Shown here: positions 35,500 to 63,207 of the stretch, one piece after another
Position numbering within the stretch: position 1 is the stretch's first letter
Layout: each line of letters opens with the position of its first letter
Assembly: GCA_050084515.1 (NCBI GenBank)
Contig: CM114271.1
Coordinates: 33,170,001-33,234,000 of the forward strand
Reading direction: 5' to 3'
Origin: Blasia pusilla
Lineage: Eukaryota
Length of the DNA stretch: 64,000 nt
Program-made: the position numbers and the translations under genes
The notes under the pieces: model-generated
What the model was told of the DNA's origin: nothing
The model's database searches: none
Seen by the model: only the letters and a program-made list of their open reading frames with translations

Positions 35500-36611
35500 A
35501 GAAACAACATCCTAATAATGGAAGGAGGCAAGAAACAAAAAAAGGAATGTATAAAGAAAATGGCAATAATCCAACATATATTAATTCCTTGAAACAAATT
35601 TGGCATGAATACTAGTGGTTGATCAAACGTGAATAGACAATGAAGTGAGGAGGCGCCAACCACTTCCACTTCATGTATCAATGCCAATGTTTCGATACGT
35701 TGTAATTCCATTGAGATATATTGTTGGAAATAAGTAGTAACAATGGAGAGAGGACTTTGAGAAGGGGCGAATTGATGATACTCAAGGGAATGGTAAGCAC
35801 ATGCTTTTAGGAAAGTATAAAAAGACATATATAAGTGCTAAAAAATTTCCACTACAAAAAGAATAAATCCATCGGTTGAATGTCGTATTGCATAACTTAA
35901 TTCCTTGATTCTTATTGATGCATTGGCCACTAAACCTTAGTGTGTGCAACCCGACATATGAAGTTAGAACATGTTGGATCAACAACCAATAGAAAAAAGT
36001 CAACTCAAGCCTTAACATGATCAACTCTTTGATGAGAGATTACTTCTACATTAGAAGGTAAGACATATAGCTACTCTTATCTAACGGTGTATTTAGTATT
36101 ATTAGCCACGAATGTTATTTCTTCTCTTATCATATCATGCATCTCTATTTTTCCTCCACCATCTACATATTGGAGAATGAAGATACCCTTGGATCAATGG
36201 GCTCCCCATACACACAATTAGACACACCTAAAAGCAAAGGATGAGGAAGTCCAAGGTGTAATTCCACAACTTTCAAGAATATACTTTATGGATAACAAAA
36301 TGTAAAAATAAGAGGATTTGTAGTAAGTCATGCCCCTTCCCCTCCCTCTTACACCCACACATGAATGTAGACAAGATCAATGAGTATCAAAGGGCGCCTC
36401 AAAGAGATATAAGAAAATTCAATTTTGTGCAAATTCTCAAAGATAAACTCTTAAGGTCAATCAAACCCTTCTATAATCAATTGAGTGAAAAGAGGTAGAA
36501 TAGCTTGTGTAGCAAGTGGAAGAAGAGTATGGATAGATCTCTGATATTTTTGGAATAATACATCCCCCTTCTCTACATATGCCACATAATCCATTAAAAT
36601 AGATGCATCTC
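35500..36611 (-). mobile_element. 3' part of a decayed CRE-like non-LTR retrotransposon (Zn finger / restriction-like endonuclease region)
   Basis: Minus strand gives LHLGLPHPLLLGVSNCVYGEPIDP (cf. RLGLPHP..C.CG..ID) and TYFQQYISMELQR (cf. terminal RQRVSIALQR). It continues on the far side of the Gypsy insertion. Confidence 0.65.
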
Positions 36612-36739
36612 TATGGTGCGCATACACATCGCTACACAACATACATCGTTGTCACCAAACACGCACACAAACACGCACGATCCCATGCTAACTCATGACA
36701 TCCAAACAACGAGACAAGAAATACCAAAATATCTCCAAT
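36612..36739 (-). repeat. Split repeat B2 (128 bp), 3' terminus of the element
   Basis: Direct copy of 37250-37377. Its left end TATGGTGCGC is a two-mismatch version of TGTCGTGCGC. Confidence 0.92.
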
Positions 36740-37247
36740 AAAGTAAGATCCAATCTCTCTCTACACAATCTCACACCATAGCTCTCAAAGGTGTGCACTC
36801 TCTCTCATGTCAAACCAAACCGACTCTGCTAATGAAAGGCTTGGGTTACACTCACAAGGCAAGGGACCATAGCTCCGCCGCCTCATGCCAAGAGGTTCAA
36901 CAAAAAGAGAATGAGCTCTCAAGCTCTTTCTCTCCTTGGGATATATACCCCCCCCTCTCCCAAGCTCTCTCCATGGTAACCTATTCTCCCAAGTCACCTC
37001 CTTGGCTCTTGACCTGATGTAGGAGGTCAAGGGCCACTTACCAAAATAGAAAGTTGATCATATACTCAAAATGGTAGTTATCTAAAATAGTAAGTTTCTC
37101 AATATGGCTCCAAATGAGCCAAAATGAACCTGCTCTCTCAGGTTTCCCGGGGCCTCAACAGGTCTTCCTCGACCTCCTAGGCCTGTCCTACACTACTCTT
37201 GAAGACGTTCTACTAGATCTCACCGATCTATCCTAAAGGACGTGACA
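36739..37247 (-). repeat. Split repeat A2 (about 509 bp)
   Basis: Direct copy of 46481-46987, roughly 96% identical by eye. Begins TGTCACG on the minus strand. Confidence 0.95.
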
Positions 37248-37249
37248 GT

Positions 37250-37377
37250 TGTCGTGCGCATACACATCGCTACACAACATACATCGCTGTCACCGAACAC
37301 ACTCACAAACACGCACGATCCCATGCTAACTTATGGCATCCAAACAACGAGACAAGAAGTACCAAAATATCTCCAAT
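37250..37377 (-). repeat. Split repeat B1 (128 bp)
   Basis: Lies directly downstream of the purine tract. Ends ...GCGCACGACA and is joined to A2 by a 2-bp spacer (CA-ac-TG on the minus strand). Confidence 0.92.
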
Positions 37378-37390
37378 CGCCCCCCTAGCT
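37377..37390 (-). promoter_or_regulatory. Polypurine tract candidate (AGCTAGGGGGGCGA)
   Basis: G-run immediately upstream of B1. No purine tract precedes A2. Confidence 0.6.
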
Positions 37391-37569: not shown

Positions 37570-37710
37570 ACATTTGGGACACATCCATCATCCTCGAGGA
37601 ACCCTAGTGAGAGGTGGCGTCAGACATGCCATATGCCAACCTCTCAAACAACCATCACAGACTAGCATTGTGGCCGCACCACGGGTAGAACCATACAACA
37701 TACAACGCAA
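37570..37710 (-). pseudogene. PHD finger at the integrase C-terminus
   Basis: RCMLYGS...[30 protein letters not shown] follows the C4HC3 pattern with the LxCDxCxxxWHxxCLxPPLxxVPxGxWxC signature. The second Cys is mutated to Tyr and there is one stop. Confidence 0.9.
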
Positions 37711-37719
37711 GCCTGCAAG

Positions 37720-38900
37720 AACTACTACTAAGCTCGGATCCATTGTACCATCAATGTTAGGAAGGTGACATGGTGCACAATCACGCACATGGTCCTTCCA
37801 TACCATACCATCGCGTCCCTCCAGCAAGAGAACATCGGATGGCAAAACGTAACGCACTCTCAAGATAGTGCGCCCTGCAGTCACATCCAACGTCGTAGGT
37901 GCCATTTGCTGCAAGTAGACATGATCTCCCTAATGAAACCTCCGGATAGTTGGTCGATAACCACCACCCCGAATAGTCGCATACCTCAACGTATCCCGAT
38001 GTTGCGCAATCGCCAAGTTCTTGAACGTCATGGGCATCACTCTCCAAAACAACTCAGCCCTCTGAGAACATGCTCGCATCCATACATCTGGGTCATCAAG
38101 TTCCAGCATCTCGATGAATGGCCGTAGGTAAGTCTAGCTCTCGCCATAAAGTGGCAAGTACAGTGAAAAAGACGCTAAGGATGCCTGCCTGTTGAATCTG
38201 TATCCCATCGCCAACCAGGGCAACTGGAGGTCCCAATCTCCTAGGTGACCTCTTTGCAAGCCATACTTGCGTAAACCCCTCTTTACCGTCTGCACAACTC
38301 TCTCCCCTAATCCATCCGCCTCGGGATGATCTCGCGAAGTCGTACGATGGTCGATGAGCGCCTGATCACACAAGGCCTAGAACTCACCGTGAAACTTGGA
38401 ACCCTGGTCTGTCAACACCTCAGCCGGTGCGCCATAATGACTCAACACTCTGTCAAGGAAGGCATAATCTACTCCCTCACTCGCTTTGTCAGGCAATGCA
38501 ACCAACTCGATCCACTTCAAGAAGTGCTCGACCATCACCAACACATAACGAATGTGACGCTTCGTCAAAGGCAAAGGTCCTGCAAAATCCAAACTCCATC
38601 TATACCCTAAGCCCATGATCGGTAATGCATGCAACTGTGGAGTCGGAGCATTGAATGATGCTCGGACCCGATCACATACCATGCACTTGGCAACAAACTG
38701 CTGAACGTCAATCTGCATGCCTTGCCACCAATACTCAATCTAGAGCAAGCTGTACGTCCGCTTCACCCCAAAGTGATCCAACTCCTCATGGGCATGCTGC
38801 ACTAGTCGTGCTCTCAGCGAAGGATGTGGCACTACGCGTACTCTACCATCCTCCCACACCCTCAAGATATGTGTCTCCTCCCAACGGAACCGTCTGGCCC
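37720..38900 (-). pseudogene. Retroviral-type DDE integrase (HHCC plus core)
   Basis: HAHEELDHFG...KCMVC zinc-binding motif; WSLDFAGP...VLTDQG...HPEADGLGERVVQTVK core. Broken by stops. Confidence 0.93.
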
Positions 38901-39190
38901 ATTGTAGGATCTGATCTCGCTCTCTAGCACCCACAGTGCTCGCAATACTGCCAATACGAAGGTACTCCAAGACTATTCCATCATCATGAATATCTCGGCC
39001 ACTTGTCGTCTCCTCACCGGCCTCGGGATCCAAGGACTCTCCACTAGACCTCGCCATCGAAGTCTCCACACTCTAGCTCTCCATAGCCAACATGCCTAAA
39101 TAAGCTGCCGCGTGCCATCCTGGCACTGACTCCTCATCACTCTCTCCATGCCACCGAGCTCCAGTCGCATCTCGCTGACTCGGGCATGGA

Positions 39191-39757
39191 TTAATAACTC
39201 AATCCATCTGCATCTTGGTTGAGCGTCCTAGGTCTATGTACCACCAGAAAATCATATTCCTGCAACAACAGAGCCCATCTCGCAAGCTTCCTTGTAAGCT
39301 TGTCGGACTCCATCAACCACTTCAATGGTTGATGATCAATGATGATGGTAAAGGGGTTGCCGAATAAGTAACACCTGAAATGCGCGATAGCCCACACTGC
39401 AGCCAAGCACTCATCCTCATACGAGCTGTACTTCGCCTCTGAAGCGTTGTTTGAGCGGCTAGCATAAGCCACCATGAACTCTCTACCCTCATCATCATGT
39501 TGGGTGAGCACCGCTCCAAGCCCAAACATGCTCCAATCTGCGTGCAACTGGAAAGGACGCCCCTGGATCGGTCTCCTCAAGATGGGCAACGTCAACCTGT
39601 CCTTGAGCAACTGAAATGCTTGCTCTTGCTCATCCCCCCAGTGCCACTCATGATCCACCTTTTTCAGCAAGGTCAAGGGCTTTGCAATCGAACTGAATCC
39701 CTTGACGTATCGCCGATAGAATTTCGCCAATCCCATGAATGCGCGAACACGGCTCAC
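39191..39757 (-). pseudogene. RT connection / RNase H
   Basis: VRAFMGLAKFYRRYV; PFQLHADWS..GLGAVL; YASRS; ECLAAVWAIAHFR; DHQPLKWL; LARWALLLQEYDF. Confidence 0.93.
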
Positions 39758-39759
39758 AT

Positions 39760-40500
39760 CTGTAGGGCACGTGGAATGCGTGAGATAGCCTCTACCTTTA
39801 TATGTTGAACACCAAGGCCCCCTGGGTATATCGTATGACCCAAGTACTCAATCTGGTCGTAGAAGAACTTGCACTTGCCTCGATGTAGCTTCAGCCCATG
39901 TAATTGCAATCGTCGAAACACCTCCTCTAGTTATCGCTCATGCTCCTCAACCGTGGCGCTAAAGACTATGATATCATCAATATAACACGTAGCAAAATCC
40001 AGACCAGCCAAGATCCTATCCATGACCCTTTGAAACTCAGCCGGGGCGTTCTTTAACCCAAATGGTAAGAACCGCCACTAGTACAAACAATCCTTCCCGT
40101 GAGGATCAATGCCCCAAAATGCCGTCTTCTGCATGTCCTCCAATCTGATAGGCAATTGATGGTATTCGGCTTGCAAATCCAATGAACTGAAGACCTTTGC
40201 GTGACCAATCACATCAAAGATCTCCTCAGGGGTGGGCATGGCATACCTATCGGACTTCGTCTGTCGATTGATAGGTCGGTAATCCCCACACATCCGCCTA
40301 TCCGTCCAGTTGCCATGCACATCCTTCTTGGCGGGCATGACAGTGGCAGATGCATACTCCCCATGGGACATCTCCACTAGTCCTGCTCCGACCAAGTTCT
40401 GGCTCCTACTCTGAATCAGAGCCCTCTCCATATCATTGTACCTGTAGGGTCATCGGAAGATCGGCGTATCACTCGAAAAATCAATGCGGATCCCTGGTCC
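39760..40500 (-). pseudogene. Reverse transcriptase (Ty3/Gypsy type)
   Basis: [43 protein letters not shown] and catalytic YIDD (about 39970-39985). Confidence 0.95.
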
Positions 40501-40955: not shown

Positions 40956-41920
40956 CTAAGCCACTCCCAAGCTAAAGATCCATGTCAAGCAGTTTAGGTC
41001 CATCGCCTCACCCAAGACATGGCGTCGTGATGCCTCTGATACTGACGGGACTTCCGTCACTCCTGTGGGAAATCCCATCGCTCGCTTGCTCTCGTCGGCA
41101 TTGGGCTCCACCAACCGCTGAACTTGGTCATCCCAAACCAAGCCAGGACCGGCCTCCTTGTATGCATAGGAAGCGAAGAAACTCACAAACGTGGGCAAGG
41201 CTGCCCGCGGCCTGCCTACTCTGTTGACCATAGTCAACGGTGGTCGATCATCGTGCGTCATTGCTTATGATTGACGACCTGGATCCAGAATGGAATCCAC
41301 TAACAAATGGGAGCGGCGCTCCACTCTCGCATACGCCCTCCATAACACCGCATGGGGCACCAAGTTGGTCCACCATAGACGCGGGCGATGGGCTCTAGAA
41401 CCTACACTCGCCGCATCTAAGAACACTGTTGGGCTGATCCAGGCACGCACCTGATGAGCACTCGTTACCACCCGTGATATGGAGTCTCCTAAGATCGGCA
41501 CATTCTCGAGAATGTAGGCTGGAGAACAAGATTGGTGCTCCTGCAACTGCCGTAAGACCCTCAAAATCTCCCAAAACAATCTGGACCGAGTGTCAGCCAA
41601 CCCGCTACCTCGTCCAACACTCAATTGGCCCTCACATGGCCAATCGGAAATGACCAAATCAATGGTCCCTACCCGCTCTAAGTCCTGCGCCCCCAACAAG
41701 GAAATATCCTCGGTGAGGGAAACTGGTACCTCAGATCGCTGGACGCAAATAATAAGTCGGGAAAACAGAGGCGTAACTGCGCCACATGTCGTAGTGAGAC
41801 GCGCCTCGCAACATCATCACTCTCCACATATAGGTACCGTTGTACTTGCACTCCTGCTTGCAAAACAGCAGCTAACCCGGTGTTAATCCCTCCAAAGAGA
41901 TCTAACACTCGAATACCCTC
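40956..41920 (-). pseudogene. C5 cytosine DNA methyltransferase domain, DNMT3-like, embedded in pol
   Basis: Motif I IRVLDLFGGI; motif II YVESD; motif IV DLVISDWPC; motif VI YILENV; motif VIII AHRPRLWWTNL (cf. DNMT3 AHRARYFWGNL); motifs IX/X ESKRAMGFPTGVT...RRHVLGEAM (cf. ERxFGFPxHYT...RQRLLGRSW). One frameshift near 41700 and a stop near 41265. Confidence 0.92.
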
Positions 41921-42326
41921 CTCCGGGATACACCACACAATGGGTGTGGTATCCAAGGGTGTCATCGTAGCACTCCCTGCTACCTCCGGCTTCTCAGACC
42001 CATCCCGCTCCGGTGCAAACGCTTCGCTCCACGCGGTCTGCACGTTCTCATCTGCCAATCGTCGAAGTTTCTCAATCGAGCCCCACGACGACACCTCTCC
42101 TCCACGGAATGATGTAGCTACCATAATACTCCTCTCCATAGAAATGTCAGGAACAAGAGTATCCTCTGCATGGACATGTCCCTCAATCAAATCACTAGGC
42201 CAAGTGATGGCATTGCTAAATGCTGCTAAGGTCGCCATCTCTTCTGGACGTTGCTCGATCACTGCACCTGTGAATCGAACGGGAAATGAGCTAAGGCGCC
42301 CATCACCTGACTGCCTCTAAATGCTG

Positions 42327-42660
42327 CTAAGGTCGCCATCTATAGGATGCTAACTCCTCCCGGTAATCCAGCAAAAACCCCATCCGGTATAACATTGCTC
42401 CACCAACCAAGACGTCGTAGGACTCTGCATCAATCACTATTGCCTTGACGCGCACCACGGACTCATCTCTAGGATGTCCCGGGCGAATCCTGACCACGAC
42501 CTCATGTCGGGTGATATACTGTGTGGTACTCGCTCCACCCAAGGATGTCTGTATCCGGAATGGAAAACACTCCACGTCGGCTCTCGTCAAGCCCAATCCT
42601 CTGAATGACGCCTTCCCCAACATCAGGGGTTGTGCTCCTGAATCCAACAAGACGTGCTAC
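42327..42660 (-). pseudogene. Retroelement aspartic protease
   Basis: VLLDSGAQPLMLG active site; YDVLVGG at the C-terminal (ILG-like) position. Confidence 0.85.
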
Positions 42661-43559
42661 GGACTAAAAGCTCTACCTCCGAGACTCACCAACTGGAATA
42701 CCTCTCCTCGGTTATCCAGCTACACAACACTAGGAGAAGCCATGGCACGCTCTATCGCGGGTCTAGCGGGCATCTCCGCCATCCTAGCAGCCGCAGCCTG
42801 CCATGTATCTGACGTGGACGGCCCGAGCATTCGCTCCAAGGGCAGGTCCATCACCTCCTCTGCAATCACCTCTAAACGTGATGCAAGAACTCCAACTCTG
42901 CGCTCACATAGTGAAGCGGCCAGCCAAAAAGCCTCGGCGGGCGTGCCCCCCAACGTCATAACATCGGAAGCAGAAAATAAAGGAGTGTGGTACACAACAG
43001 TGGCCGCCCCCAACAACGTGCTCGACACATGCCCCTCCTGAGCATCAGCAATAGGAGTCGTCATACTTGCTTCTCCCATTTCCCTTCGTGCCTGCACACC
43101 AACAACATCACCAGCTCTCCAAGGACTCTGATCAGGACCCATCGATGGGGTCCTCATCGCCTCAGACAACGTTAAAGACTGAGGAAACCTAGTCTGTTTC
43201 ATGGCTTCCCCTCGCTGTGGATCCAACTCTACGGCTGCTCCACGCATCACAACTGCGGCGGCCTCCATCTGGGCAATCCTGCACATCCAACTAGGATCCT
43301 CTAGATCTCTGGCTGCTCCATATGATGTCGATGCCACGGATCCGACATCTGATAACCTCAATGCCATAGCGGCAATCTGCTCCTGTAGTTGCTATATCTG
43401 AGCAACCATCCCTGCCTCACGTCCGGCGTCCCCCTTGGTGTGTCTAGGTGGTAGTACTCTACCTCCTCCACGGGCAGCTCCACCAACTTGTCGGGCAACT
43501 CCAGCTCCTCATCCCCCAACGGGACCACTTGGTGCACGATCTCTAGGCTCACCTAGACC

Positions 43560-44830
43560 GGCTACTTGCCCTGGTGCCCTCTCTAGCTCTTGGTCTAGAC
43601 TTTACTCAGGATGTAAACTGAAACACCTAGCGCGTATATGACCATACCTCTGACAATAGTCACACTGATAACCTCCTGGTGCAGCACCATCTCCTCCTCC
43701 CGGTTGAGGCGCACGTCCATTATTCTGACGAGTGCAATGGCGCTAATAATAGGCTCCACCACATGACCAACAAGTAATAGTAGGCGGCTGTTGTTGAGCC
43801 ACATATGAAGGCGGAGGTCTCTGTGCCAAGGGCTCCCGTTGTCCTCCCTGAGCTCGTGGTGCCACAGTTGACCTATCTCGGAGTCCACGTTGTTGCACAG
43901 GTGGTGCAGCCAATCGTGATAGCTCTCACCCAGAACCCATGGTGGCTACGCTCTCCTCCGCCATGTTGCTCTCAATGTTCTCGGTGGTCCTAAAAACATC
44001 TCTCAACGTAGGGGAGGTGGTCATAAGAAGCACCCCCTCCCGCACCCGTGGCTGTAGGGTCTAGTCCAACATCGTGTACCATGACTAGATAGCCTGAGCC
44101 TCTGTCACCCCCTGAGTGACGTTGATCAACCAGCGCAAGCGGGTGTAAGCCTCACGTAAACTCTCACCCGAGCGCCTCTGGAAGTTGTGGATGCTCCGCA
44201 ACTTTTCCGTCCGTACCCCTTGGTAGCTCGCCCTCAACTCAGCAAAGAACTCAACCACGGGGTTGAACCTGGGACAAACCCAACTAGATGGTGCAACTGC
44301 TCCAGTGTGAGTGACCCCTCCTAAAACATCACTAGTGGAAGAGGAAGTAGCCTCTCCTGACTCCTCCTCCTCATCTGGGAAGGGCTCCGTCCATGACACA
44401 TAGTGGGGGTCGTAGTAGAGTCGCCATGCCTCAATCTCCTGGGCATATCTGTGGGAGAACTCATGGTAATCGTCCATGGGTGCCCCCTCTAAATGCTGAA
44501 ACATACCGTTCCATGCTGTAAACGGGTTGAACTCTCTAGAGTTCCTGGCCCGTTGGGAGTTGCACCAACTCCTAAACTCTGCTATGAAATCCTGCAACTC
44601 AATCGTACCTACTGCACCTGAAAACCTACACGGTCCTCTACCCTGGTCGCCCATCTCGTACGCCCAATTGGTAGGACCACTCACAATGTGTGGCAATGTG
44701 CTCACAAAATCCTCTACACCCTCCCCCTTGTCTGACGATGACACAGAAGGAGGTCGAGGTGGTCCCTGAAGTGAAGACCCTCGGAACCTCACGCCACTCC
44801 GCGTAAAACCTGTAGAGCTACTCTCGGGTT
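43560..44830 (-). pseudogene. Gag-like region with two Zn knuckles
   Basis: Retrotrans-gag-like FSGAVG..LQDFI..F ... FQRRSGESLREAYTRL. Zn knuckles CWSCGG...RHC (degenerate, about 43735-43775) and CDYCQRYGHIRARC (about 43620-43665). Confidence 0.8.
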
Positions 44831-46465
44831 CACCACCTCGCCTCTCAAAGTCCCGACTGAACGCGGTGATGACCCTTGTGCCCTTCTCACCCGATCACTC
44901 TTGCCTCGCGAGTAATCCCTCAATCACTCATCCCAAACATGCGGCACTCGATCTACACTCTTCCTTCCCGAGACATGTAACGTGCGGAAATTAGCGGCGT
45001 GGTGGGGCAAATCGACCAGGCTATCATTTCATCGATAACCTACCCTCAACTCCGGATATCCCACACATGTCTATGTCCCCTAAATCACTACATAAATGAT
45101 GCTCTCAGCATCCACACACCCAATATCCCCAAATAAACTATCCAAATCCCAGAATCCCTCACACGTGCAGGGTAAAGGACCGGAATGGGTAACATGAACA
45201 CATGTCAATGTCGCTCCTCAACAACTGCAAATCTCGACCCCAACTCGGTCGTGGAGATAACTCCTCCAATCAGCAAGTCATACTCCTCCCGGACTGACGT
45301 TGCTCAAAACTCCTCGATAGACGGTGTGGTTCCAACGGAACGGTGTTGCGTTGCAGGTGGCACGGAACGGCTACTAACGGCATGCCCTCGATGATGGGAT
45401 GCGGCACTCAGCGGCTTACCCTCCTCAATCAACAATAAACCCCCACTCTGCTCCACAATGCCGGAGTGGCTCCGTGATCGAGACGGTGTGGTGCGGCCAC
45501 GAGCGACACGGCACGGCAAACGGCGGCGCGTTGCGACTACGGGCGTCACAGTACGGTACCTGATCGTCGTTGAGCGGCTACCAATCACAACATAGCAGTA
45601 TGAAATCAAAACTCAAACACTATAACAGGAGGTCATATGCCATCACAAGTTGATGACGGTGGCGGCCAAAACAAAGTACGTGATGGCAACGCAAGTCCGA
45701 GAATCAACGAACGTTGTGGCAGACCCTCCACTCCGTAAGGGCAGAAATGGCAACCAAGGGTGGACAACGGACGATGGACCATTGACGGTGACGGTTGACC
45801 GTTGCTGGTGACGGCTGAAGAGTGATGATGATGGTTTACCATTGATGGTTGACGGTGACTACGACGGCGACGGCCGCCGCCGGTGTGGCGGCTGGTTGAG
45901 GGTTTGCACAATTTAACCCTAAAAATCGCCTAGGAATGGCAGTTTTGCAAGATTATTCATAAATTTTTGCTCGCAACTCCAAGTTGCACACTGTTTATTG
46001 CACAACGTGAAATAAATAGCGTGCACAGCTTCACAATCTACGCCAAAATCAAAAAATATTTAGAATCAAACATTCCAGTAAAAACTGACGGGGACTGTGG
46101 TAAAGCCCAATGTCTCTTTATCCTACACAAAATTCGGCAGCGATTCCGCGATAATTCCTCCCAAAAAAATACAACCTGTAAAAATGCAAATCAGCAAGCA
46201 ACATGGTGCTCCCAAAAGTACCGGCACGGGGCATCCCGCCCCCATACTCAATCCCTATCAGAAATTGGATAGTGCTTCCGTGCGCCACTCTTCCACACGA
46301 AAAATCGGCAAATGCAAAGAACAATCCGAGCAACCCTTGCTCCGATGAGCACTCCCATGAGCCGTTGAACGGGGAACACGGTCCCTAACCTGAAAAAACA
46401 GCGAGTGACCAGCGAGCTCCCCCATGAAGCTCTCTCACTCTCTCATTTTCTCATTCTCTCTTTCT

Positions 46466-46481
46466 CTCATTCTCTCTTTGT
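46466..46481 (-). promoter_or_regulatory. Self-priming primer-binding site (ACAAAGAGAGAATGAG)
   Basis: Occupies the PBS position at the end of A1 and is the exact reverse complement of 46642-46657 inside A1. Confidence 0.7.
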
Positions 46482-46987
46482 AAAGTAAGATCCAATGTCT
46501 CTCTACACAATCTCACACCATAGCTCTCAAAGGTGTGCACTCTCTCTCATGTCAAACCAAACCCATTCTCCTAATGAAAGGTTTGGGTTACACTCACAAG
46601 GCAAGGGACCATAACTCCGCCGCCTCATGCCAAGAGGTTCAACAAAGAGAGAATGAGCTCTCAAGCTCTCTCTCCTTGGGATATATACCCCTCCCCTCTC
46701 CCAAGCTCTCTCCATGGTAACCTATTCTCCCAAGTCACCTCCTTGGCTCTTGACCTGATGTAGGAGGTCAAGGGTCACTTACCAAAAATAGAAAGTTGAT
46801 CATATACTCAAAATGGTAGTTATCTAAAATAGTAAGTTCCTCAATATGGCTCCAAATGAGCCAAAATGAACCTGCTCTCTCAAGTTTCGGGGCCTCAACA
46901 GGTCTTCCTCGACCTCCTAGGCCTATCCTCCACTACTCTTGAAGACGCTCTACTAGATCTCACCGATCTATCCTAAAGGACGTAACA
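46481..46987 (-). repeat. Split repeat A1 (507 bp), 5' terminus, with TATA box TATATAT at 46681-46687
   Basis: Starts TGTTACG on the minus strand. Direct copy of 36739-37247. Confidence 0.95.
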
Positions 46988-48500
46988 TCTCCTTGGAGAA
47001 AACTTGATATAATAATCAAGGCAACCAAAGCTCAACTTCTCTAAAAAGTTTTTGGTATAAATGTTACTTTTGAAAAACAGCCCTATATCTCCAAAATAAA
47101 TAGGCAATATTGCTTGTTATGAAACCAAAACACTATCATCTCCCTCAAATACATTCAAACTAGAAGTTAACCCAAGTCCTCATAATAAATTTATCGAAAA
47201 AAAGCCAACCAATCTAAGAAATTTGAAGTGGGAGGACAAGTACAAAGAAGGTAAGCCAATCATTGTAGAAGACATTAGAAGAGAATCCCATAAGCCAATT
47301 GGGTATCCCTAAGACGAGGTAACAATTGAAGTTATTCTATGTCTTTTAAAAGGGCCTCGTCCAAGAACTTAGATACATAGTCTATGAAGCCAATTATGAC
47401 AGTAGGAACTCAAATCTCTCCGATATAAGTGATAAAATCTGGATTAGATGGGATGAATGTTGAGGGAAAACATGAAGGAAACCATACCTAACATCTTCTA
47501 GGTTGGAATTTAAATCTAACATCGAGAGTTGCTCCATAAAATAGGTATAAGGAGGAACTTCACAAGAAAGACCTTCAATAAAAGTAATATCAACAATAGA
47601 AAGGAAGAGACAAGATGAAAATGCTTGGGTTGATACTTGGATGACAGTAAAATATGCAAAAGCAAAAATTGGACCACCCATGAATCACCATAATATGTGC
47701 CATATATTAATTATCTATTTCTCAAATATGACCACACAAAAAATGAAATTGGATACGTCAAGCACATTGACTTGAATCAATACCTAATCTAGATGAACAT
47801 AAATAGTAGAGCATATCCCATAAACGACTACCTCGCAACCACTAAGGATGGCCACTCCAAATTAATGAGGAAATATATAGACACTAAATTGAGGATGAAA
47901 TAGCAAGTAGAGGGATTACTCAACTAACAAGTATTAAACCTCTCCAATAGCCAAGGGGAAAACATCAAAAGGAAGCTTGGACATAGCTAATAAACAACAA
48001 GCCTCCAAGAGCCTAGAGATAGAGAACAGTAGACAATATGTCATAATATGTGCATACTTATTATATAGAGAGCTAAACCCACCTCTCAAATCTATGGGGG
48101 TAGAAAAAAGCATGAAGAAGCTCAAAAACCATGCATAGTAGTTAATCCATTGCTAAGCAAGAAATATGAAGAAACACCATCGTGAAAATCTCCAAGACAA
48201 GTTCTAAGTCAAGATCTCTTGCACAGTCTTCCATGAAAGATAGTACATTATCACTTACAAGAGGATGAAGAACTTCTAAGAGTGTCAATATATTTGCACT
48301 TGGAACCACCTGAGATATATGTCTCAATACTCAAGTCGCATGTGAAAACTCACCAACTTCCCCCCAAAGGAGGCTATGTTAGAGAGGTTGTATTGAAGGC
48401 CTTCTATGATTGGCACGTTGAGTGGAGTGAGCCATTGCTAACAGCTCTGTTTGAAAGTAGATGTATTTTCTAAAGACTCTCCCAATCCCCAAACATAAAA
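46988..48500 (-). mobile_element. RT part of a decayed CRE-like non-LTR retrotransposon
   Basis: LLAMSKLPFDVFPLAIGEV (cf. LLAxxKxxGGIRPIAVGE); H*FGVAILSGCEVVVYG (cf. QFGVxxxGGCExxVH); GGPIFAFAY...SCLFLSIVDITFI (cf. PLFAL...ADDTHI). Confidence 0.75.
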
Positions 48501-53952: not shown

Positions 53953-54573
53953 TCAAATAGATTTGTAGATTCTATTTCTCATGATTTTGGACTTTTCTTA
54001 CTTCCAATAGCGTTGAGGTTGCCACACTTCTTTTAGTGAATACTAGTAAGAGTGTTTTTTCCATTTTGAGTTATTAGTGTGGCATATAATTTTCCAATTT
54101 TAGAGTCATTTCTACTTTATTACTTCAGAGAAAAAAATGTAATTATAAAATTCCTAACTCCATAAAAGGCAAGAGATTCCTCATACTCGAATCTAATTTT
54201 TCATTTATTTTACAATATTATTTCAGAGATAAGAAAAATAAGTGTATGCTCCCTTCTTGCTATTTTAAAATATGTGCGTCTACATAATCTTCCATTCATA
54301 CATAGTCACACGTAAGTTAGTAACTCACCTCATTTCCTTTTAATATAAGATAATATGACACCTCATATTTCTTTTGTGAAAAAATATTTGCTTCTTTTAG
54401 AGAGATTTTTTATAAAATCCTTGCATAATAATCCCCTAATTTGATTATTAGCATAGATGCTCATAGAATCCTAAAAACAATTACAACCATTGCACTCTAT
54501 GGATGGTTTGCTTAGCATCTACAACTAGGTCCCATGTTTTCTCTTTAATTTTTCAATCCTTTGATACATGTGA

Positions 54574-55565
54574 TGTCACGATCCTCATAACCAAATGACC
54601 GTCAAGTGGAACATCAAAACTCTAGTGGGCTCATGCTAGAATGGTTTGCGTGTTGGAGAGGTCTCTTGAAAAAAGCATTAGAGATGAGAGATTCACCATA
54701 TGATGCTTTTATGGTCGCGACTAAGAAATCTGAACTTGACGTGAACCACGACTTGAGAGGAGTCCAATACATGAAGAGAGGTTGTCAAAGAGGTGAGAAC
54801 CGGATTTGGAACGTGACCAACATTCGGGATTTTGAATGTATTTTGGACCATAACTTTTAGTCCCAAAATGTGTTTGGAATAAGTAAGGTGGCTTTGGAAA
54901 GCTTATGCAAAGCAAGTTCCAACGCACTATAGATCTCAGCAAATGCACAAGCAAAGGCTGAAAAACTTCAGAAAAACAATTGTTAGGAGAGTTGGGTTGA
55001 GGGCCAAAAAGAGGGCTCGAGAGTCTTTCTGAAAAGATAGGGGAAGGGTTGAGAACCCCATAAGTACTCGTAAAGGAGAAGGTCTCAAGAGTGTTTGGGA
55101 CTCGAACCCCACTTTGAGGCGTCCCGGATAAATGAAGGGTACGGAATGGATCGATAGTTTGGCGTTGGGATTCAAAACTTGAACCAAGTCCAATAGAGTG
55201 GATTTCGGAGGCCACTTTTAGATTCCAACCCACGACTCATTGAAGTGGATCTTGGATGGGGACCCATGGGAGTTCCATTTGATAGTTGGGATCGCTAGGC
55301 ATACAAACAACGTTTTAGGTGCTAGACTATCCAGAAAGTGTGTCCCAGATCTCGAAAGACTTGGCTGTGTTGGGAAGTGAGGAACTAGGCAGGTTGAGCT
55401 TGATGAAGTGTTGAGTTGAGAACTCGGTGGGTTGGAAGGCTGGTTGATCGAGACCAGACTAACATGAGTGTGTTTAGGTTTAGATCAACAATGAGAGTGT
55501 GTCCTACTGAACGTACATTTCCACAACACTATAGATTGGCGTTCTAGGGGAATAGGCGCACGACA
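54574..55565 (+). repeat. Diverged solo LTR of the chromovirus family
   Basis: TGTCACGA...GCACGACA, collinear along its length with the LTR at 55862-56863. Flanks TGTGA / TGTAG (degenerate TSD). No PBS or internal region. Confidence 0.85.
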
Positions 55566-55861
55566 TGTAGGGCTCTACATTACATCCTCATCCATTCATT
55601 TCAAACATTAGGTGATTACTTGAATTCTCTTCTCACATGTCTTTTTGTGTTTCTAACTTTCTTTATTATTGTCTCCATAAGTGTCAAGTTTAGGCATGCT
55701 TTGTCTTGTTTGATCTTCTTTGTAGGGTTATTCTTTTTATATCAAGGATATTGTTGTCATATTTCTTCTTTCTCCATTCGCATCTATTTTGGTGTACAAA
55801 TTTCTTGTATATTTCTTCCATTCCTCTACTTTACTAGAAATTTATCTCATGAGATCTTCCT

Positions 55862-56863
55862 TGTCGCGACCCTCATGACCAAACAAGTGCCAAGCGGAAC
55901 ATCGGAACATTAGCGGGCTCACGCTAAGATGGTTTGCGCGTTGGAGTTGTCTCAAAGAGGAGACAAGAGACGAGACGCGAGCGAGAAGTCGCGTTTCAGA
56001 TGTGATGGTTGCGACTCAGAAACCTAGAGCAAACGCGGAATGAGACTTGAAAGAAGTCGAGTCTAGGAAGTGGGTTGCCAAAGGAAAGATCCGGATTTGG
56101 AACGCCACTTGCGTTTGAGAGTTTCCGACTGTATTTATGGCCATAACTTTTAGCGCCGAGATGCGTTTGGAGCAAATAAGAGTGCGTTGGAAAGCTTATG
56201 AAGAGCCAGTTCAAACACACCAAAGATCGCTGCAAACACATAAGCAGCGGCCGAGATACGACCCGAAAACGATTGTAAGTGGAGTCGGGTTGAGGGCCAC
56301 AATGAAGGGCCCGAACCTCTTTTCCCAAAGGGGAGGGGTTATTGGAGAACCCCAGAAGTACTAGTAAGGGGGAAGGTCTCCGAGAGTGCTTGGAACCCAA
56401 ACCCCACTTTGGGCGCCGCGGGGCGGCTCAAGGGCATGGAACGGAACGCGAGTTTGGGCGTTGGGTTGGAAAACCTGCACCAAGTCCATTGAGGCAATTT
56501 TAGACATCCCTCTTGGATTTCACGCCGCGACTCAATTACTTGGGTCTCGGTTCGGAACTCACACGAGGACCGTTGAACAGTTGGGATCGCTAGGCGTGCA
56601 AGTGTCGTTTCAGATCCCTGGACTAACCAGGAAGTCTGTTCCAAGTCTTGAAGGACTTGCCATGTGTTGGGAGCTAGGAACTAAGGAAGGTTGAGCTTGA
56701 TGAGACGCCGAGTTTAGGACTCGGTGGGTTGGAACGCCGGTTGGCCAAACCCGACTAACGAGAGTGCGTGTTTGGGTGTAGATCGGCGATGAGTTCGTGA
56801 CCTACTGAACGCACGCTTCCGCAACACTAAAGATTGACGTTCAAGGAGAGTAGGGGCGCGACA
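55862..56863 (+). repeat. 5' LTR
   Basis: TGTCGCG...CGCGACA; matches 62212-63207. Confidence 0.97.
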
Positions 56864-56865
56864 AA

Positions 56866-56877
56866 TGGTATCAGAGC
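56866..56877 (+). promoter_or_regulatory. Primer-binding site, tRNA-iMet type
   Basis: TGGTATCAGAGC, 2 nt after the 5' LTR. Confidence 0.95.
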
Positions 56878-57079
56878 TTATCCTTGGAGAGCGAGAACTT
56901 GGGGTCGTGGGATCAGCCGGACGCTTGGGAAATTTCAAGGTAGCGGCTAGACTCGGACGCTCGAGGAGGGACGCAAGAAACGAGGAGGAGATCTGAGTGA
57001 GTTGGCTTGGAGATGGCGATCAAGGGAGAACAACCCAAGAAGCGCCGAATCAAGCGACGTGAACCGAGAGAGGAACCAA

Positions 57080-60000
57080 TGCCGGACCGTGAAGCTATAG
57101 AGAGTCGGAGACTCGAAGAGTGAACGCCGATCGTGAGGGCGTCAGTGGCGACTCCTTCCGCGGGGCGATGGGCAAACTTCGGGAAAGGACGGAGTCGAGC
57201 CAGACGTTGGACTTGTTGAAGGTGTTGGTGGAGCAGATGTCCCGGCAAAGCAAGCGGATTGCCGAGTTAGAGGCCACTCAAACCCGAGTGCGGGCAAAAA
57301 GCTCTGCAAGATTTAACCGCCTTACGCCATTTTCGGAGTGGGGCGCTCATGAAAGTGAAGGATTTCCTTACGGAATTGGAATTGTACGAGGCGCGAGAAA
57401 GGCTGCGAGCGGGACAAGGTGACGGTAGCCATTACTTTCTGAAGGATCATGCTCTACAATGGTGGACCGCTCAACGAGAGGAATATCTCGGGCGGTGAGT
57501 CACCCTCGAGTTGGGAGGAGTTCAAGGAGTTGATTGGGGATCGGTTCACTCCCGAGTACCAAGGATTGCGTGACACGGTGGAATGCGTCGCGGATGCTGG
57601 CAGAGTGGTTCCTTAAGCGCGTATGTGAGGAGTTTAGTGCGAAATGGCCCGACTTCTAGTCCGAAGATGGATGAGCACGCCGAAGAAGGCTATCTTCATT
57701 AGTGGACTCAAGCCGGCCGAGAAGGCCCTTTACCGAATGCCGGCGTTGCCAAAGAGACGCGGACCTTACGAAGCTAGCGGAGCGGATTGGGGACGATGAG
57801 GTCCAAACCCGAAACCCTTCAAGTCAAAAGTTTTTTGAAGAAGTCGAAAAATAAGGAGGCGTTCAAAAGAGGCGGAGTGGGGGGGCCAAGACGAACTAGG
57901 AGAGTAAATCGCCCGGCAAACAAAACGAGTGGAACTTCATGCGAAGCCGAAAGGAGGACAACACTCAAAGACAGGGAACGGCAAGGTCGTATGCTATAAC
58001 TGTGGCGAACCGGGGCACCTGTCGAAAGGGTGTTCGAAACCGAAGGTTAGTAATGGGAGTATGATTGCGTTTGCTGCTAAGCATCTGTTGGCGGGCGATA
58101 TGGAGACGTCCCTTCAAGTCACCAAGAGGATGCACAATTTGGTGTACCTAAGATCCAAGATTGCTGATCGCGATGTGTTGTTGCTCGTGGATACGGGTGC
58201 TTCACACTCCTTCCTAAGCCCAAGAATCGTGAAGGAACTGGGGTTGTCTACCTCTAAGGCGGACGAGCCCATTCGAGTGGGATTTGCGGGAGGCAAGTCT
58301 CATCGGACTTCTGATTTGGTCTTGGGTTTGACAGTAGGATGCGGGGTATTCGAGTTGAAGGAGAATTCCACTGTATGCGAAATGGACGGCATTGACGGAG
58401 TTTTGGGGAATACATTCCTAGATGCGTTTGAGGTGGAGTTAAGACGCCGACCATTGAGGTTGAGCGTCTTGCTAAAGGGCAAACGGTTACAGGTGCGGTT
58501 GGTCCGTGAGGTTCCAACGAAGATGGAGTTGGTGAACTCGATCACAAGGAGGAGCATGAATGAGTTGGAGGATGGATTTCTCTGCTTGATGAGACAAGTG
58601 GAGGAGGCTACAAGCAGTATACGCAGAGATCAGGACGCTGCCTCAAGGGGAATCCCAGAACCACTCCAGGAAGTGGTCCAGGAGTTTGAGGATGTCTTGA
58701 CAAATGAGCTTCCGACTGAATTGCCGCCGCATAGAGCCGTAGATCATAAGATAGAGATCATACCCGGTTCCCAACCGCCTTCAAAAGCACCATATAGGTT
58801 GAATCAGGAGGAACTTCTTGAGTTGAAAAAGCAGTTAAGTGAGCTCTTGGAAAAGGGTTACATTAGGACTAGCAAGTCACCTTATGGAGCACCTGTTCTC
58901 TTTGTAAAGAAGAAGGATGGAAAGATGAGGCTGTGTGTTGATTACCGTGCACTGAACAAAGTGACGGTTCGGAACAATTATCCTCTTCCAAGGATAGATG
59001 ATCTCTTTGATAGGCTGGCAGGCGCGAGATATTTCAGTAGGATTGACTTGAAGTCAAGATATTACCAGATTCGGATTGCCGAGGCAGATGTGGAGAAGAA
59101 GGCTGCGTGACGGGGAGATATCTGGTTCCTTTGAGTTTGTAGTGATGCCTTTCGGTCTATGTAACGCGCCTCCGGCGTTCATCACATTGATGAACTCCAT
59201 TTTTCACAAGGAAATGGATGAGTATGTTATCATCTATATCGATGATATACTTATCTATTCAAGTCACTAGAGGAGCACGTTCGACATGTGAGAGCGGTCT
59301 TGTCTAAGCTAAGGGCAAATCAGTTTGTGTATGCGAATGTAGAGAAGAGCGAATTTGGTTTGAGTAAGATCAAATTCTTGGGTCACGTGGTCGGTGTAGA
59401 TGGCGTCTGTCGGACATGGAAAAGGTAAAGGCGATTTCAGTGGGAACCCCCATCCTTTGTAAAGGGATGAGGAGGTTCATAGGTGCGGTGCAATTTTATC
59501 GTACTTATGTGAAAAACTTTTCGGAATTGTGAGACCTCTCACGGATTGGACGGCAAAGTTTGCCAACACGACTTGGACCCAAGAAGTTAATGAGGCATTC
59601 AACCGAGTGAAGCGATTCTATCGCAGAACCGGTGTTAAAGGCTGCCGGAGTTTGACAAACCGTTCAAGTGCATACCGATTCTAGTGATTTGCGGTTGCGG
59701 GAATGTTGGTGCAAGAAGGAGACCGGTGGCATATGAGAGCAAGAAGCTTAGCGCGACTTTGAAAGGAGATGGCCTACTCACGAGAAAGAGTTGTTCGCGG
59801 TGGTACATTGCTTGAGGAAGTGGCGGCATTATCTAGGACTCCACAGGACTCGAGTATTCACCGATAATATATCACTCAAGTATTTTGAGACCAGGATCGA
59901 GTGACACGAAACAAGCTGCGGTGGCATGATACCTTGGCGCTGATGGATGTAGAGTTGATCCACAAGCCAGGTAAAGATAATGTGATTCCGGATCGTTAAG

Positions 60001-61524
60001 TCGCAAGGGAGGAACACATGCCATCGGCGACATAGGTCTTGAGAGCAATGTTCCCTAAGGAAACAGATCTGAGAGAAGGATTAAGTGAAGGATATATGAA
60101 GGATGCTCAAGCAGGGGAATACGAGGAAGTTGAAGCAGGGGTGAGAAGGTGGCCAACATAAGTTTGAGGCACGGTTTACTAAGGTTCAAGCAGTAGGATC
60201 TATGTAGGGCAAGGCGAATGCGAACCAAGGTGTTAGTTTGAATGTCACGCGGACCCTTGGCGAGGACATAAAGGAGAGAAATCTCGCTAGTTGTTACATC
60301 AAAGCGGTTCTTTTGCCCAACATGAAGGAGGATGTTGCTCAATATGTGAAGACTGTGTGACACCTGCCAAGCGAATAGAGTCTCTTATGATAAGAAACAA
60401 GGCTTGCTTTGCATCCCTTGCCCGATCCCCAAAGGACCCTTGCAAAGTGTGAGTATGGATTTCATCACGAGTCTTCCGAATCTGGGGATACAACGCTATA
60501 CTTGTGATTGTTGATCGGTTTAGCAAGTTGGCGAGATTCATGCCGACGGTGGATTCACTGAACGGCGTATCTGACGGCGCAACTATTCCTCGATAGCGGT
60601 GGCGTGCTCATGGTTTGCCGAGGAGCATTGTTTCAGATCGGGATCAAAGTTTACGAGTGCTTTCGGAAGCACTTGTTGAAGGTTTAAGACCAAGCTGAGT
60701 TTGAGACGGCTTTCCACCCCGCAGACGGATGGGCCAGATGAAAAGGTAAACTCTATCATGAATCAAGTTTGAGGAATTATGTCAATCTTGATCAACGCGA
60801 TTGGATCAAGTGGTGAGCATGGCGGAATATCTTGCTACAACTCGACCAAGATTTTCGCAACAGGAGAATCTCCGTTTCTCCTGGAAATGGACAAGAGCCA
60901 AAAAGGGCCTCTTGATCTAGCCCTTTCGAAGGGTACTACATTGGCACGAACACGACAAGCAACGGCAGAAAGTTTGTTGGTAGAGATGCGAGAACGAGAA
61001 GAGAGCGCGAGGCGAAGTCTTGCACAAGCTCAAATGAGGTACGTTAAGCATGCTAACAAGAGTCGGCGCCAAGTACGATTCCAACTTGGAGAACAAGTGT
61101 GGTTGAGTATGAAGAATCTCACTCTTCCGAAAGAGTTGTCTGCGAAGGTGTCACGCCAAGTATCTTTGGACCGTATGTGATTGTGACAAACCCGTTTGAG
61201 GATGTGTATACGTTGAGGCTGCCGGACGAGTTCAAGATTCACCCGACCTTTCATGTGTCATTGTTGAAGAAATACCTTCAAGATAATGGACGTTTCGAGC
61301 GGAGACAGGTGGTGAGACCGCACCCGGTCATCGTAAATGAGGAGCCGGAGTTCGAGGTGGAGACCATCTTACGTTCGAGGCGTCGGGCCAACAAGTATGA
61401 ATACTTGGTAAAATGGAAGGGCTACCATGTGAAGGAGGCGACTTGGATTGCGGAGGCGGATTTGGAACACGCGCAAGAATTGTTGCGTGACTTCAAGCGA
61501 ACACAAGCAAAGCACATACGTTAG
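57080..61524 (+). pseudogene. gag-pol polyprotein (frameshifted as assembled)
   Basis: [14 protein letters not shown] knuckle, [10 protein letters not shown] protease, [10 protein letters not shown] / MPFGLCNAP / YIDD RT, RNase H and integrase fragments (SMDFIT, FHPQTDG), and chromodomain FEVETILRSR...YLVKWKGY...TW. The start is approximate. Confidence 0.92.
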
Positions 61525-62197
61525 TACGAGGAGAAGCTAGAGACATGACTTGTAATCAGTGGAATCTTGGGCCGAAGGCCGTTGTAACTAGAATATGCTA
61601 GTGTTGCAATAAAGGAGTGTATGGATTTGGAGGTTCGATACCAGTGTTGATTGCAATTTGTATGTGGTAGTGCATGGCTATGAGTCGTTCATCATAGACT
61701 TAGAATGTACGACAAAAGGACAGACAAGGAGTATTTGAGGTGAGAGCTCGTATGTGGATAAGCACCTAGAACATGACCTTGTGTTGGATTACACTCGGGC
61801 TCGCCCTAGCGTCGGCGGGGCAGATGAAGTCTGTCTTGGGGCTTGGGGTGATCTTACTTGTGGCCACATAAGTAAACTTAGTGACGCGCCTAAGTCGAAT
61901 ACGAGAGCGACCCAATAGTAGTACGATTTGTGGACCAGGTAAAGAGGTGTGATGTTCTGATTATGAGTCGAAAGAGTCTAAGGTTGCACACTTAGTTAGC
62001 TTATTTGATAGGTTAGTTCCTTGGAACTAGTCCAGGCTTATCGAAGATGAGAGGCTAATAATTCTAAGTGGGGCAAAGCGACAACTAGAGACTAAGAGGC
62101 ATTGCGGGTTAGCCACGTAAGCGCAATTCAATGTCAAGGGTAGGCTGCCAGGAGACTTGACATATTAAAGGTTTGCGTTGATGAGGCATCAACCTCT

Positions 62198-62211
62198 AAA
62201 AGAGGGGTGAG
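62198..62211 (+). promoter_or_regulatory. Polypurine tract
   Basis: AAAAGAGGGGTGAG directly before the 3' LTR. Confidence 0.9.
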
Positions 62212-63207
62212 TGTCGCGACCCTCATGACCAAACAAGTGCCAAGCGGAACATCGGAACATTAGCGGGCTCACGCTAAGATGGTTTGCGCGTTGGAGTTGT
62301 CTCAAAGAGGAGACAAGAGAGGCGAGACGCGAGCGAGAAGTCGCGTTTCAGATGTGATGGTGCGACTCAGAAACCTAGAGCAAGCGCGAATGAGACTTGA
62401 AAGAAGTCGAGTCTAGGAAGTGGGTTGCCAAAGGAAAGATCCGGATTTGGAACGCCACTTGCGTTTGAGAGTTTCCGACTGTATTTATGGCCATAACTTT
62501 TAGCGCCGAGATGCGTTTGGAGCAAATAAGAGTGCGTTGGAAAGCTTATGAAGAGCCAGTTCAAACACACCAAAGATCGCTGCAAACACATAAGCAGCGG
62601 CCGAGATACGACCCGAAAACGATTGTAAGTGGAGTCGGGTTGAGGGCCACAATGAAGGGCCGAACCTCTTTTCCCAAAGGGGAGGGTTATTGGAGAACCC
62701 CAGAAGTACTAGTAAGGGGAAGGTCTCCGAGAGTGCTTGGAACCCAAACCCCACTTTGGGCGCCCTTGGGGGCTCAAGGGCATGGAACGGAACGCGAGTT
62801 TGGGCGTTGGGTTGGAAAACTGCACCAAGTCCATTGAGGCAATTTTAGACATCCCTCTTGGATTTCAGGCCGCGACTCAATTACTTGGGTCTCGGTTCGA
62901 ACTCACACGAGGACCGTTGAGCAGTTGGGATCGCTAGGCGTGCAAGTGCCGTTTGAGATCCCCTGGACTAACCAGAAGTCTGTTCCAAGTCTTGAAGGAC
63001 TTGCCATGTGTTGGGAGCTAGGAACTAAGGAAGGTTGAGCTTGATGAGACGCCGAGTTTAGGACTCGGTGGGTTGGAACGCCGGTTGGCCAAACCCGACT
63101 AACGAGAGTGCGTGTTTGGGTGTAGATCGGCGATGAGTTCGTGACCTACTGAACGCACTCTTCCGCAACACTAAAGATTGACGTTCAAGGAGAGTAGGGG
63201 CGCGACA
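62212..63207 (+). repeat. 3' LTR
   Basis: TGTCGCG...CGCGACA followed by TTCCT. Confidence 0.97.

Follow-up and report, generated by a model that had tools for sequence, protein, structure and literature searches.

How does a retrotransposon begin reverse transcription when the sequence following its 5' repeat offers no tRNA-type primer-binding site (PBS)? This question is raised by a degraded, 10.4-kb Ty3/gypsy element on the minus strand of a 64,000-nucleotide (nt) stretch of DNA from Blasia pusilla (NCBI GenBank assembly GCA_050084515.1, contig CM114271.1, positions 33,170,001 to 33,234,000; this whole stretch is termed here the window, and coordinates are those of the window unless a relative is named). 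The gene order of the element is gag-PR-DNMT-RT-RH-IN-PHD--that is, gag, a protease-like region, a DNA methyltransferase, reverse transcriptase, RNase H, integrase and a PHD finger--and its repeats are arranged as A-internal-B-nn-A-B, where nn is a 2-nt spacer. An original prediction, made from the window alone, held that this DNMT-bearing element primes reverse transcription with the folded-back 5' end of its own transcript, as is established for Tf1/sushi elements (PMC6317226, citing Lin and Levin 1997, Butler 2001 and Atwood-Moore 2006). Here that proposal is examined by shuffling, by RNA folding and by comparison with relatives of the element. The comparative evidence supports it: the 16-mer at 46481-46466 is probably the PBS of a Tf1-like, self-priming, LTR-type retrotransposon (LTR, long terminal repeat), and the placement of this site and of a polypurine-like tract suggests, in addition, that the reverse-transcribed LTR is permuted relative to the integrated ends.

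An exact complement at the boundary of the first repeat

The first repeat, A1 (46482-46987, minus strand; 506 nt, beginning TGTTACG), comprises a promoter and an R-U5-like part. Within it, 30 nt after the first T of a TATATAT box (46687-46681), starts the 16-mer CTCATTCTCTCTTTGT (46657-46642), which corresponds to the predicted first bases of the transcript and is the candidate self-primer (termed here the 5' partner). As originally claimed, and at the coordinates originally given, the complementarity is exact: the 5' partner is the reverse complement of ACAAAGAGAGAATGAG (46481-46466, minus strand), the putative PBS. The latter begins at the first base after A1 (an offset of 0), which is also where A1 and its downstream copy, A2, diverge, give or take one common 'a'; because the point of divergence coincides with the start of the 16-mer, the site has the position of a PBS following a 5' LTR, this being by definition the U5/PBS border. 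Nor does a TGG-type PBS follow A1: no TGG occurs within the first 56 nt, the first one lying at 46424-46422. The A2 copy of the 5' partner (36915-36900) differs by one C-to-T change, at which pairing is still possible as G.U. What the sequences themselves show is this complementarity, its exact position at the A boundary, the TATA spacing and, as described below, the persistence of the arrangement with different sequences in three lineages.

The course of priming that we infer runs as follows. The transcript would begin at about 46657, some 30 nt past the TATA box of A1, and its first 13-17 nt would fold back over the 176-nt R-U5 part to pair with the site abutting the end of A1. Where this duplex ends on its inner side, the RNA would be nicked by the RNase H of the element, as in Tf1, and the 3'-OH so released would prime minus-strand DNA, the first templated base being the last base of A. 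It is solely the TATA+30 spacing that identifies the 5' partner as the first bases of R. (A fragment found in one of the relatives, locus L029, whose homology to A begins near the 5' partner, was considered as a marker of the RNA 5' end and was rejected as a single ambiguous rearrangement.)

The length of the complement was compared with chance in several ways. Sixteen nt is the longest exact complement between A1 and the next 50 nt, a length that none of 2000 dinucleotide shuffles of A1 reached (maximum 13); when the GA-rich 50-mer was shuffled instead, one in 2000 did so; and for a 25-nt target after A1 none of 2000 did (maximum 11). Among 2538 equally built windows covering both strands of the 64 kb, complements of at least 14 nt occur at three loci only, the present one included. 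The reservation attached to the original prediction, that both segments are of low complexity, was fair, in that the PBS is GA-rich and is followed by a tandem copy of itself (46465-46450, 15 of 16 positions identical); its corollary, that the match might be fortuitous, is disfavoured by the A1 shuffles, and on this statistical footing chance does not explain the window complement. Tandem duplication at the PBS occurs with a 16-nt unit in the window and with an 11-nt unit in a relative (L019, ~1554-1575).

RNA folding points the same way. In the 198-nt R-U5-PBS RNA (46657-46460) the two 16-mers are paired with each other in both the minimum-free-energy and the centroid structures (-69.5 kcal/mol; z -4.36; 0 of 200 shuffles as good), and their pairing is retained when a 301-nt context is folded (z -2.44; 3 of 100 shuffles). 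A search of Rfam with 46300-47000 found nothing relevant, its two matches being far below gathering scores.

One design, three sequences

Homologues of gag were aligned and a scan of metagenome contigs was performed, which yielded 418 relatives, 80 loci being kept (cited here by L-number); viral contigs, searched both with gag alone and with the gag alignment, yielded no relative. Within the long loci examined, gag, spacer, PR-like, DNMT, RT, RH, IN and PHD segments are collinear with those of the window (tblastn with open reading frames (ORFs) from the window); the N-terminal DNMT piece matches 44 of the 80 loci and the PHD piece 20. Two lineages distinct from that of the window were recognized from the 5' regions: the L039 type, to which belong 41 of the 59 loci having at least 600 nt upstream of gag, and the L077 type, which comprises L077, its duplicate L079, L073 and truncated copies. 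Gene order is collinear across all three lineages. Twelve loci compared with references all proved to be truncated, insertion-bearing or divergent copies of the L039 or L077 type, and a TATA-filtered scan for inverted repeats in 15 loci (the unclassified ones and some with little sequence upstream of gag) found nothing. The lineages were compared by position from the end of A; a MAFFT alignment left the helix ends out of register.

Each lineage has its own exact duplex. That of the window, CTCATTCTCTCTTTGT with ACAAAGAGAGAATGAG, is 16 bp long, with 30 nt between TATA box and partner and 176 nt between the start of the partner and the end of A; that of L004 and L006 (L039 type), AACATAGTTCTTTGAGT with ACTCAAAGAACTATGTT, is 17 bp long, with corresponding distances of 26 and 176 nt; and that of L077, ACTTTTGGTGATT with AATCACCAAAAGT, is 13 bp long, with distances of 29 and 125 nt (12 bp of it are retained in L073). 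Every one of these was unmatched in 2000 shuffles of A, and in all three lineages the PBS is offset from the end of A by 0 nt. The three duplexes have little sequence in common. The conservation and compensatory change for which the original prediction had proposed to look among family members is thereby found, in the form of a 13-17-bp duplex whose 5' side starts 26-30 nt after a TATA box and that is built from different sequences in three lineages. The distance from partner start to A end is the same 176 nt in the window and in L004/L006, despite their sequence divergence.

The L039 type is numerous enough for variation within a lineage to be followed. Its alignment includes 38 of the 41 copies (L015 was left out as too short, and L034 and L035 as the same as L033 in this region). 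Across this alignment a 15-pair helix has 83.3% of its cells paired, versus 40-50% when its 3' side is slid by 1-3 columns. The partner is complete in 31 of the 38 rows, with a median of 15 of 17 positions paired; contiguous pairs number at least 10 in 21 of these rows, at least 12 in 14, at least 15 in nine and all 17 in eight. The perfect 17-bp Watson-Crick helix occurs in two versions, CATAG/CTATG (L004, L006) and CGTAG/CTACG (L064, L066), the difference between which is, as read from the alignment, a compensatory change from A:T to G:C. RNAalifold recovers the same long-range helix from 28 of the 38 rows (the other 10, which have gaps or truncations there, were dropped), and the RNA of L077 also folds with the long-range helix (z -4.25; 0 of 200 shuffles).

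Weighing self-priming and its alternatives

Several observations weigh against self-priming. First, covariation within the L039 type is not significant (score 0.086, with 53 of 500 shuffles as high); this is attributed here to neutral decay of dead copies, and it means that support comes from the three lineages plus one sub-variant. Second, every copy is decayed (no ORF in the 80 loci exceeds 670 aa, the length of the longest), so that no activity is demonstrated for the element, and the 5' partner is deleted outright in L031, L014 and L038. Third, the AT-rich relatives have many exact inverted repeats of 11-14 nt (five in ~3 kb of L077), and there, as a result, the argument turns on where the complement lies and not on how long it is; the 26-nt distance from TATA box to partner in the L039 type is, moreover, at the short end of the usual range, and the window PBS is, as mentioned, GA-rich and tandemly duplicated. 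Fourth, ARAGORN found no tRNA gene in the window or in 38 loci with which the PBS could be compared.

Finally, the 5' partner has an option besides the long-range helix, namely local pairing with the upstream arm of a hairpin over the predicted transcription start (46643-46678, minus strand; -19.4 kcal/mol; z -3.0; 1 of 200 shuffles as good). Counterparts of this hairpin are present in L004 (8787-8813; z -4.2) and L077 (7217-7241; z -4.7). The 5' partner itself forms the 3' arm in each of the three lineages; the 5' arm, a near-copy of the PBS, is situated upstream of the predicted start and downstream of the TATA box. Because this places the upstream arm in U3, the hairpin would mask only the 3' (A2) copy of the primer and leave the 5' terminal copy free for the PBS; on this view, it could stop the 3' copy from competing for the PBS.

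The alternative that survives best, improbable though it is, holds that the helix is real and selected but that it serves packaging, dimerisation or translation control, priming being accomplished otherwise, as in DIRS-like elements. Conservation of the long-range helix would be expected on this view as well, and the repeats are laid out as in DIRS-type elements (PMC5890265), the priming of which is not settled; terms for priming, self-priming and folding back do not occur in a paper on DIRS-1 replication. However, the 3' side of the helix starts exactly at the A boundary in three lineages, as a primer site predicts but as a mere structural stem would not require; no other primer site is apparent, TGG being absent; and the element, instead of a tyrosine recombinase, possesses a DDE integrase and is flanked by target-site duplications.

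It is very unlikely that reverse transcription is primed instead by a host RNA (an internal tRNA fragment, a tRNA half or a small RNA), the match to the element's own 5' end being secondary. Half-tRNA primers do exist in plant Ty1/copia lineages (PMC6317226), and the sequences scanned yielded no tRNA genes against which the site could be checked. Yet the PBS sequence differs among all three lineages and is matched in each by that lineage's own 5' end, and one sub-variant has changed on both sides; moreover, there is no TGG directly after A in any of the three (the first TGG of the window lies 57 nt downstream of A1), and half-tRNA PBSs are described in the plant survey as confined to copia lineages (PMC6317226). 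The comparison with tRNAs envisaged in the original prediction was therefore answered in part: the lack of TGG after A holds in every lineage, whereas the matching of host tRNAs was limited by the 0 tRNA genes found.

The window also provides an internal control, namely a chromovirus-type LTR retrotransposon (55862-63207, plus strand), in which TGGTATCAGAGC, a normal PBS of the TGG type, occurs 2 nt after the LTR and a purine tract precedes the 3' LTR. We take TGGTATCAGAGC to be a PBS of the initiator-Met type. This retrotransposon has 1-kb LTRs that are 98% identical as well as zf-CCHC, protease, RT and chromodomain matches, and a related solo LTR (54570-55566; 72% identity) lies just upstream. 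Beyond the PBS of the DNMT element, at a distance of 35-57 nt, there is a recurrent (C)RTGGGGG motif, which lies at 46421-46425 in the window and ~35 nt after the PBS in L039-type loci; it is too far from A for a tRNA PBS.

Of similarly slight probability is the notion that the inverted repeat is a DNA-level feature or relic--due to slippage, to duplication at a GA-rich tract or to a protein-binding palindrome--having no role in RNA. The tandem duplications at the PBS of the window and, at the same place, of L019 are what such a process might leave behind, as is the local palindrome at the predicted start; nevertheless, two lineages lacking the GA-rich tract show the same arrangement, and the PBS is the reverse complement of the partner even at the loop bases (CTATG vs CATAG), rather than a direct copy of the upstream arm. 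Least probable is a chance match of two low-complexity stretches, for although both 16-mers are purine- or pyrimidine-rich and a single shuffle of the GA-rich 50-mer reached 16, no A1 shuffle did so, the match falls exactly at the A boundary and at TATA+30, and relatives with unrelated sequences exhibit the same design.

A possibly permuted long terminal repeat

Self-priming, if correct, bears on the element's termini, which the original prediction had regarded as unusual in a way that fits its priming mode. This connection holds and can be put more sharply, since the PBS after A1 and a conserved polypurine-tract (PPT)-like sequence before B1 would together define a replicative LTR of the form B-nn-A. 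The PPT-like tract of the window, agctaggggggcg (37378-37390, minus strand), lies directly upstream of repeat B1 (37250-37377), which ends with ...GCGCACGACA; next come a 2-nt spacer, AC (37248-37249), between the CA end of B1 and the TG start of A2, then A2 (36740-37247), and then B2 (36612-36739), which joins the end of A2 with zero bases between (A1 and A2 are 96% identical, and B1 and B2 94%). In the window, and likewise in L002, L021, L025, L031, L037, L038, L039, L047, L049, L050, L073, L077 and L078, a sequence TAGGGGGG(C)G lies immediately before the first base of B1; in L065 a variant, TAAAGGGGCG, takes this place. In other words, the PPT-like tract adjoins B1, not A2. The spacer between B1 and A2 is always 2 nt long (AC in the window; GC, AT, GT and GC in relatives).

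The integrated unit has other limits. Its first bases, where A starts, are TG, and its last, where B ends, are CA or TA; it is flanked by 4-bp target duplications, which are perfect in eight of the nine elements having both ends: GAGA in the window (46988-46991 on the left and 36608-36611 on the right, if the element ends at 36612), AATC in L039, AGAA in L077, TTCA in L025, ATTA in L037, TACA in L038, TGTT in L047 and ACTA in L049; the ninth, L031, has AACA/AATA, with one mismatch. Because these duplications border a unit that runs from the start of A to the end of B, the possibility of an ordinary LTR element with a truncated 5' LTR and a stray B was rejected. The features of a canonical LTR element are present--a PBS, a PPT-like tract, TG...CA ends and a target duplication--but the repeat delimited by PPT and PBS is B-nn-A. 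Moreover, the A|PBS and A2|B2 breaks fall at the same base. From the positions of the PBS and PPT-like tract and this coincidence of breaks it follows that the replicative LTR would be B-nn-A and that A2|B2 resembles joined cDNA ends, which suggests that the reverse-transcribed LTR is permuted relative to the integrated ends. This is a more unusual result than the priming mode.

How might such a permutation arise? We suggest tentatively, and with more doubt than confidence, that the two cDNA ends would be joined head to tail at A2|B2, as a circle or concatemer, and that integrase would cut the CA-nn-TG site inside one LTR of this joined-ends cDNA and insert the permuted unit with a 4-bp duplication. 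In favour of this are the boundaries, which agree to the nucleotide in the window, L031, L039 and L077, where the A2|B2 joint is exact, and the joints that vary, as would be expected if the joint were made anew with each insertion: in L065 (~9310-9330) there is a 7-nt filler and the first 7 nt of B are lost, and in L029 (16040-16060) A and B are separated by the initial 10 nt of the PBS and another 5 nt. A symmetric circle, on the other hand, predicts a mirror isomer, A-B-nn-A-int-B; no plus-strand B was found upstream of gag in any of the 80 loci, and this absence of the mirror isomer counts against joined ends. It is on boundaries and joints that the proposal is built, the circle or concatemer being hypothetical.

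Eight loci (L021, L025, L037, L038, L047, L049, L050 and L078) stop right after PPT-B and lack A2-B2; the five of these that have both ends (L025, L037, L038, L047 and L049) are flanked by perfect 4-bp target duplications. Loci of this kind would have arisen either by B1xB2 recombination or by insertion of a single-LTR form.

Coding content of the element and other features of the window

The window copy of the DNMT element is dead, its frames being broken. Domains were called with Pfam, and all of the following lie on the minus strand. A gag-like ORF of 269 aa (44085-44894) has no Pfam match; it has 20 homologues, at 38-54% identity, of which the named ones are from bryophytes (Marchantia, Sphagnum and Calypogeia). 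The protease-like region (42327-42656) likewise has no Pfam match and is named from its position; it is conserved in 51 of the 80 loci. The C5 cytosine methyltransferase region (41265-42316) is split over two frames (PF00145, E 2.5e-6 for 41265-41813), and a search with it returned 27 matches, of which the named ones are in Calypogeia and Marchantia, at 57-66% identity, together with one in Closterium at 38%; Marchantia has many DNMT-RT gene models. The RT fragment (40078-40449) matches PF00078 weakly (E 0.0079, below the curated cut-off) and is 60-79% identical to relatives. It is followed by an RT-connected RNase H (39191-39847; PF17917, E 1e-35), by a broken integrase consisting of an H2C2 zinc domain and an rve DDE core (38134-39072; PF17921 and PF00665) and, at the C-terminal end of pol, by a PHD finger (37588-37929; PF00628, E 1.8e-5), which is present in 20 of the 80 loci. 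No Chromo domain was found by Pfam at the C-terminus of the integrase, and the same search does show one in the neighbouring chromovirus; the PHD finger takes the C-terminal place that in chromoviruses holds the chromodomain. Among the relatives, the long ORFs of L017 and L039 match no Pfam family.

Elsewhere in the window, a fragment at 28567-29510 (plus strand) is 64-68% similar to the spacer between the element's gag and PR regions (42591-43326) and contains a 211-nt tandem duplication (28981-29401). There are also a full-length U2 spliceosomal RNA gene (27313-27509, minus strand; Rfam RF00004, 166.6 bits) and an ORF with a PADRE domain (21670-22467, plus strand; PF14009, E 2.8e-21). As far as is known, the PADRE domain is specific to land plants, and its presence accords with a land-plant host.

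Comparison with known systems

Like Tf1/Tf2 and sushi, the DNMT element lacks a tRNA-type PBS and has, abutting its 5' repeat, a site complementary to the predicted start of the transcript; the course proposed for it, from fold-back through RNase H nick to priming, would also be that of Tf1. The self-priming duplex of Tf1 is 11 nt long, whereas that of the DNMT element is 13-17 bp. The DNMT element differs from Tf1/sushi also in having a PHD finger and no chromodomain, in carrying a DNMT inside pol and in its A-int-B-nn-A-B layout, which is not that of two equal LTRs. In a PDB search, the solved structures nearest to its RNase H and integrase were those of Ty3.

Self-priming as such is less novel here than the original prediction implied, for it has been predicted already for 12% of the plant LTR retrotransposons surveyed, chiefly Tcn1 chromoviruses of mosses and club-mosses and TAR copia elements (PMC6317226). 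The DNMT element resembles these in being a plant LTR retrotransposon--as are they, in part from bryophytes--that lacks a tRNA PBS and for which self-priming is predicted; unlike it, Tcn1 elements are chromoviruses with ordinary LTRs. (For SM-Tcn1, the text of PMC2864245 offers evidence for neither kind of priming.) What the present reading would add, if true, is an extension of Tf1-type self-priming to a second bryophyte gypsy lineage, one that is not a chromovirus and that has its own DNA methyltransferase and PHD finger.

In design the DNMT element matches KnitGypsy-Dnmt3 from Klebsormidium nitens (de Mendoza et al. 2018, PMC5890265), in which a Dnmt3-like domain forms part of a gypsy-type pol and the repeats are arranged as A-coding-B-A-B, 'the same as that of a DIRS retrotransposon'. 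Both likenesses hold: in the DNMT element a C5-DNMT lies inside a gypsy-type pol, between the PR-like region and RT, and the repeats run A-coding-B-A-B in the window, L031, L039 and L077. The host, in contrast, is a land plant and the nearest homologues are from liverworts and Sphagnum; no K. nitens protein was among the 27 DNMT matches, which came from a word-limited search. The main text of PMC5890265 contains neither 'primer binding' nor 'PHD', and PBS, PPT, target duplications and priming mode are absent from it; the DIRS-like layout is noted there, in a main text that gives no explanation of it (PMC5890265). No paper was found on the PBS, PPT or priming of DNMT-bearing gypsy elements or on their presence in bryophytes; a 2026 preprint merely names 'streptophytes (Gypsy-DNMT3)'. 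The placement of PBS and PPT-like tract would provide a first handle on DIRS-like split repeats in a gypsy element with a DDE integrase.

With elements of the DIRS order (Ngaro, PAT-like) the DNMT element shares the layout A1-internal-B1-A2-B2 (PMC7192593). It departs from them in having an rve DDE integrase, TG...CA ends and 4-bp target duplications, and not a tyrosine recombinase. Joined ends are themselves substrates of DDE enzymes in the form of IS3/IS30 minicircle junctions, and cleavage of retroviral 2-LTR circle junctions by integrase has reportedly been described (PMC1180852, PMC1905944). Like these retroviral and IS3/IS30 junctions, B1-nn-A2 has a CA end that abuts a TG start, with a 2-nt spacer between. 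If the joined-ends proposal were true, it would connect the integration of retroelements with the chemistry of circle junctions in bacterial DDE transposons and would offer a route to--and a testable origin for--the split-repeat layout of the DIRS order.

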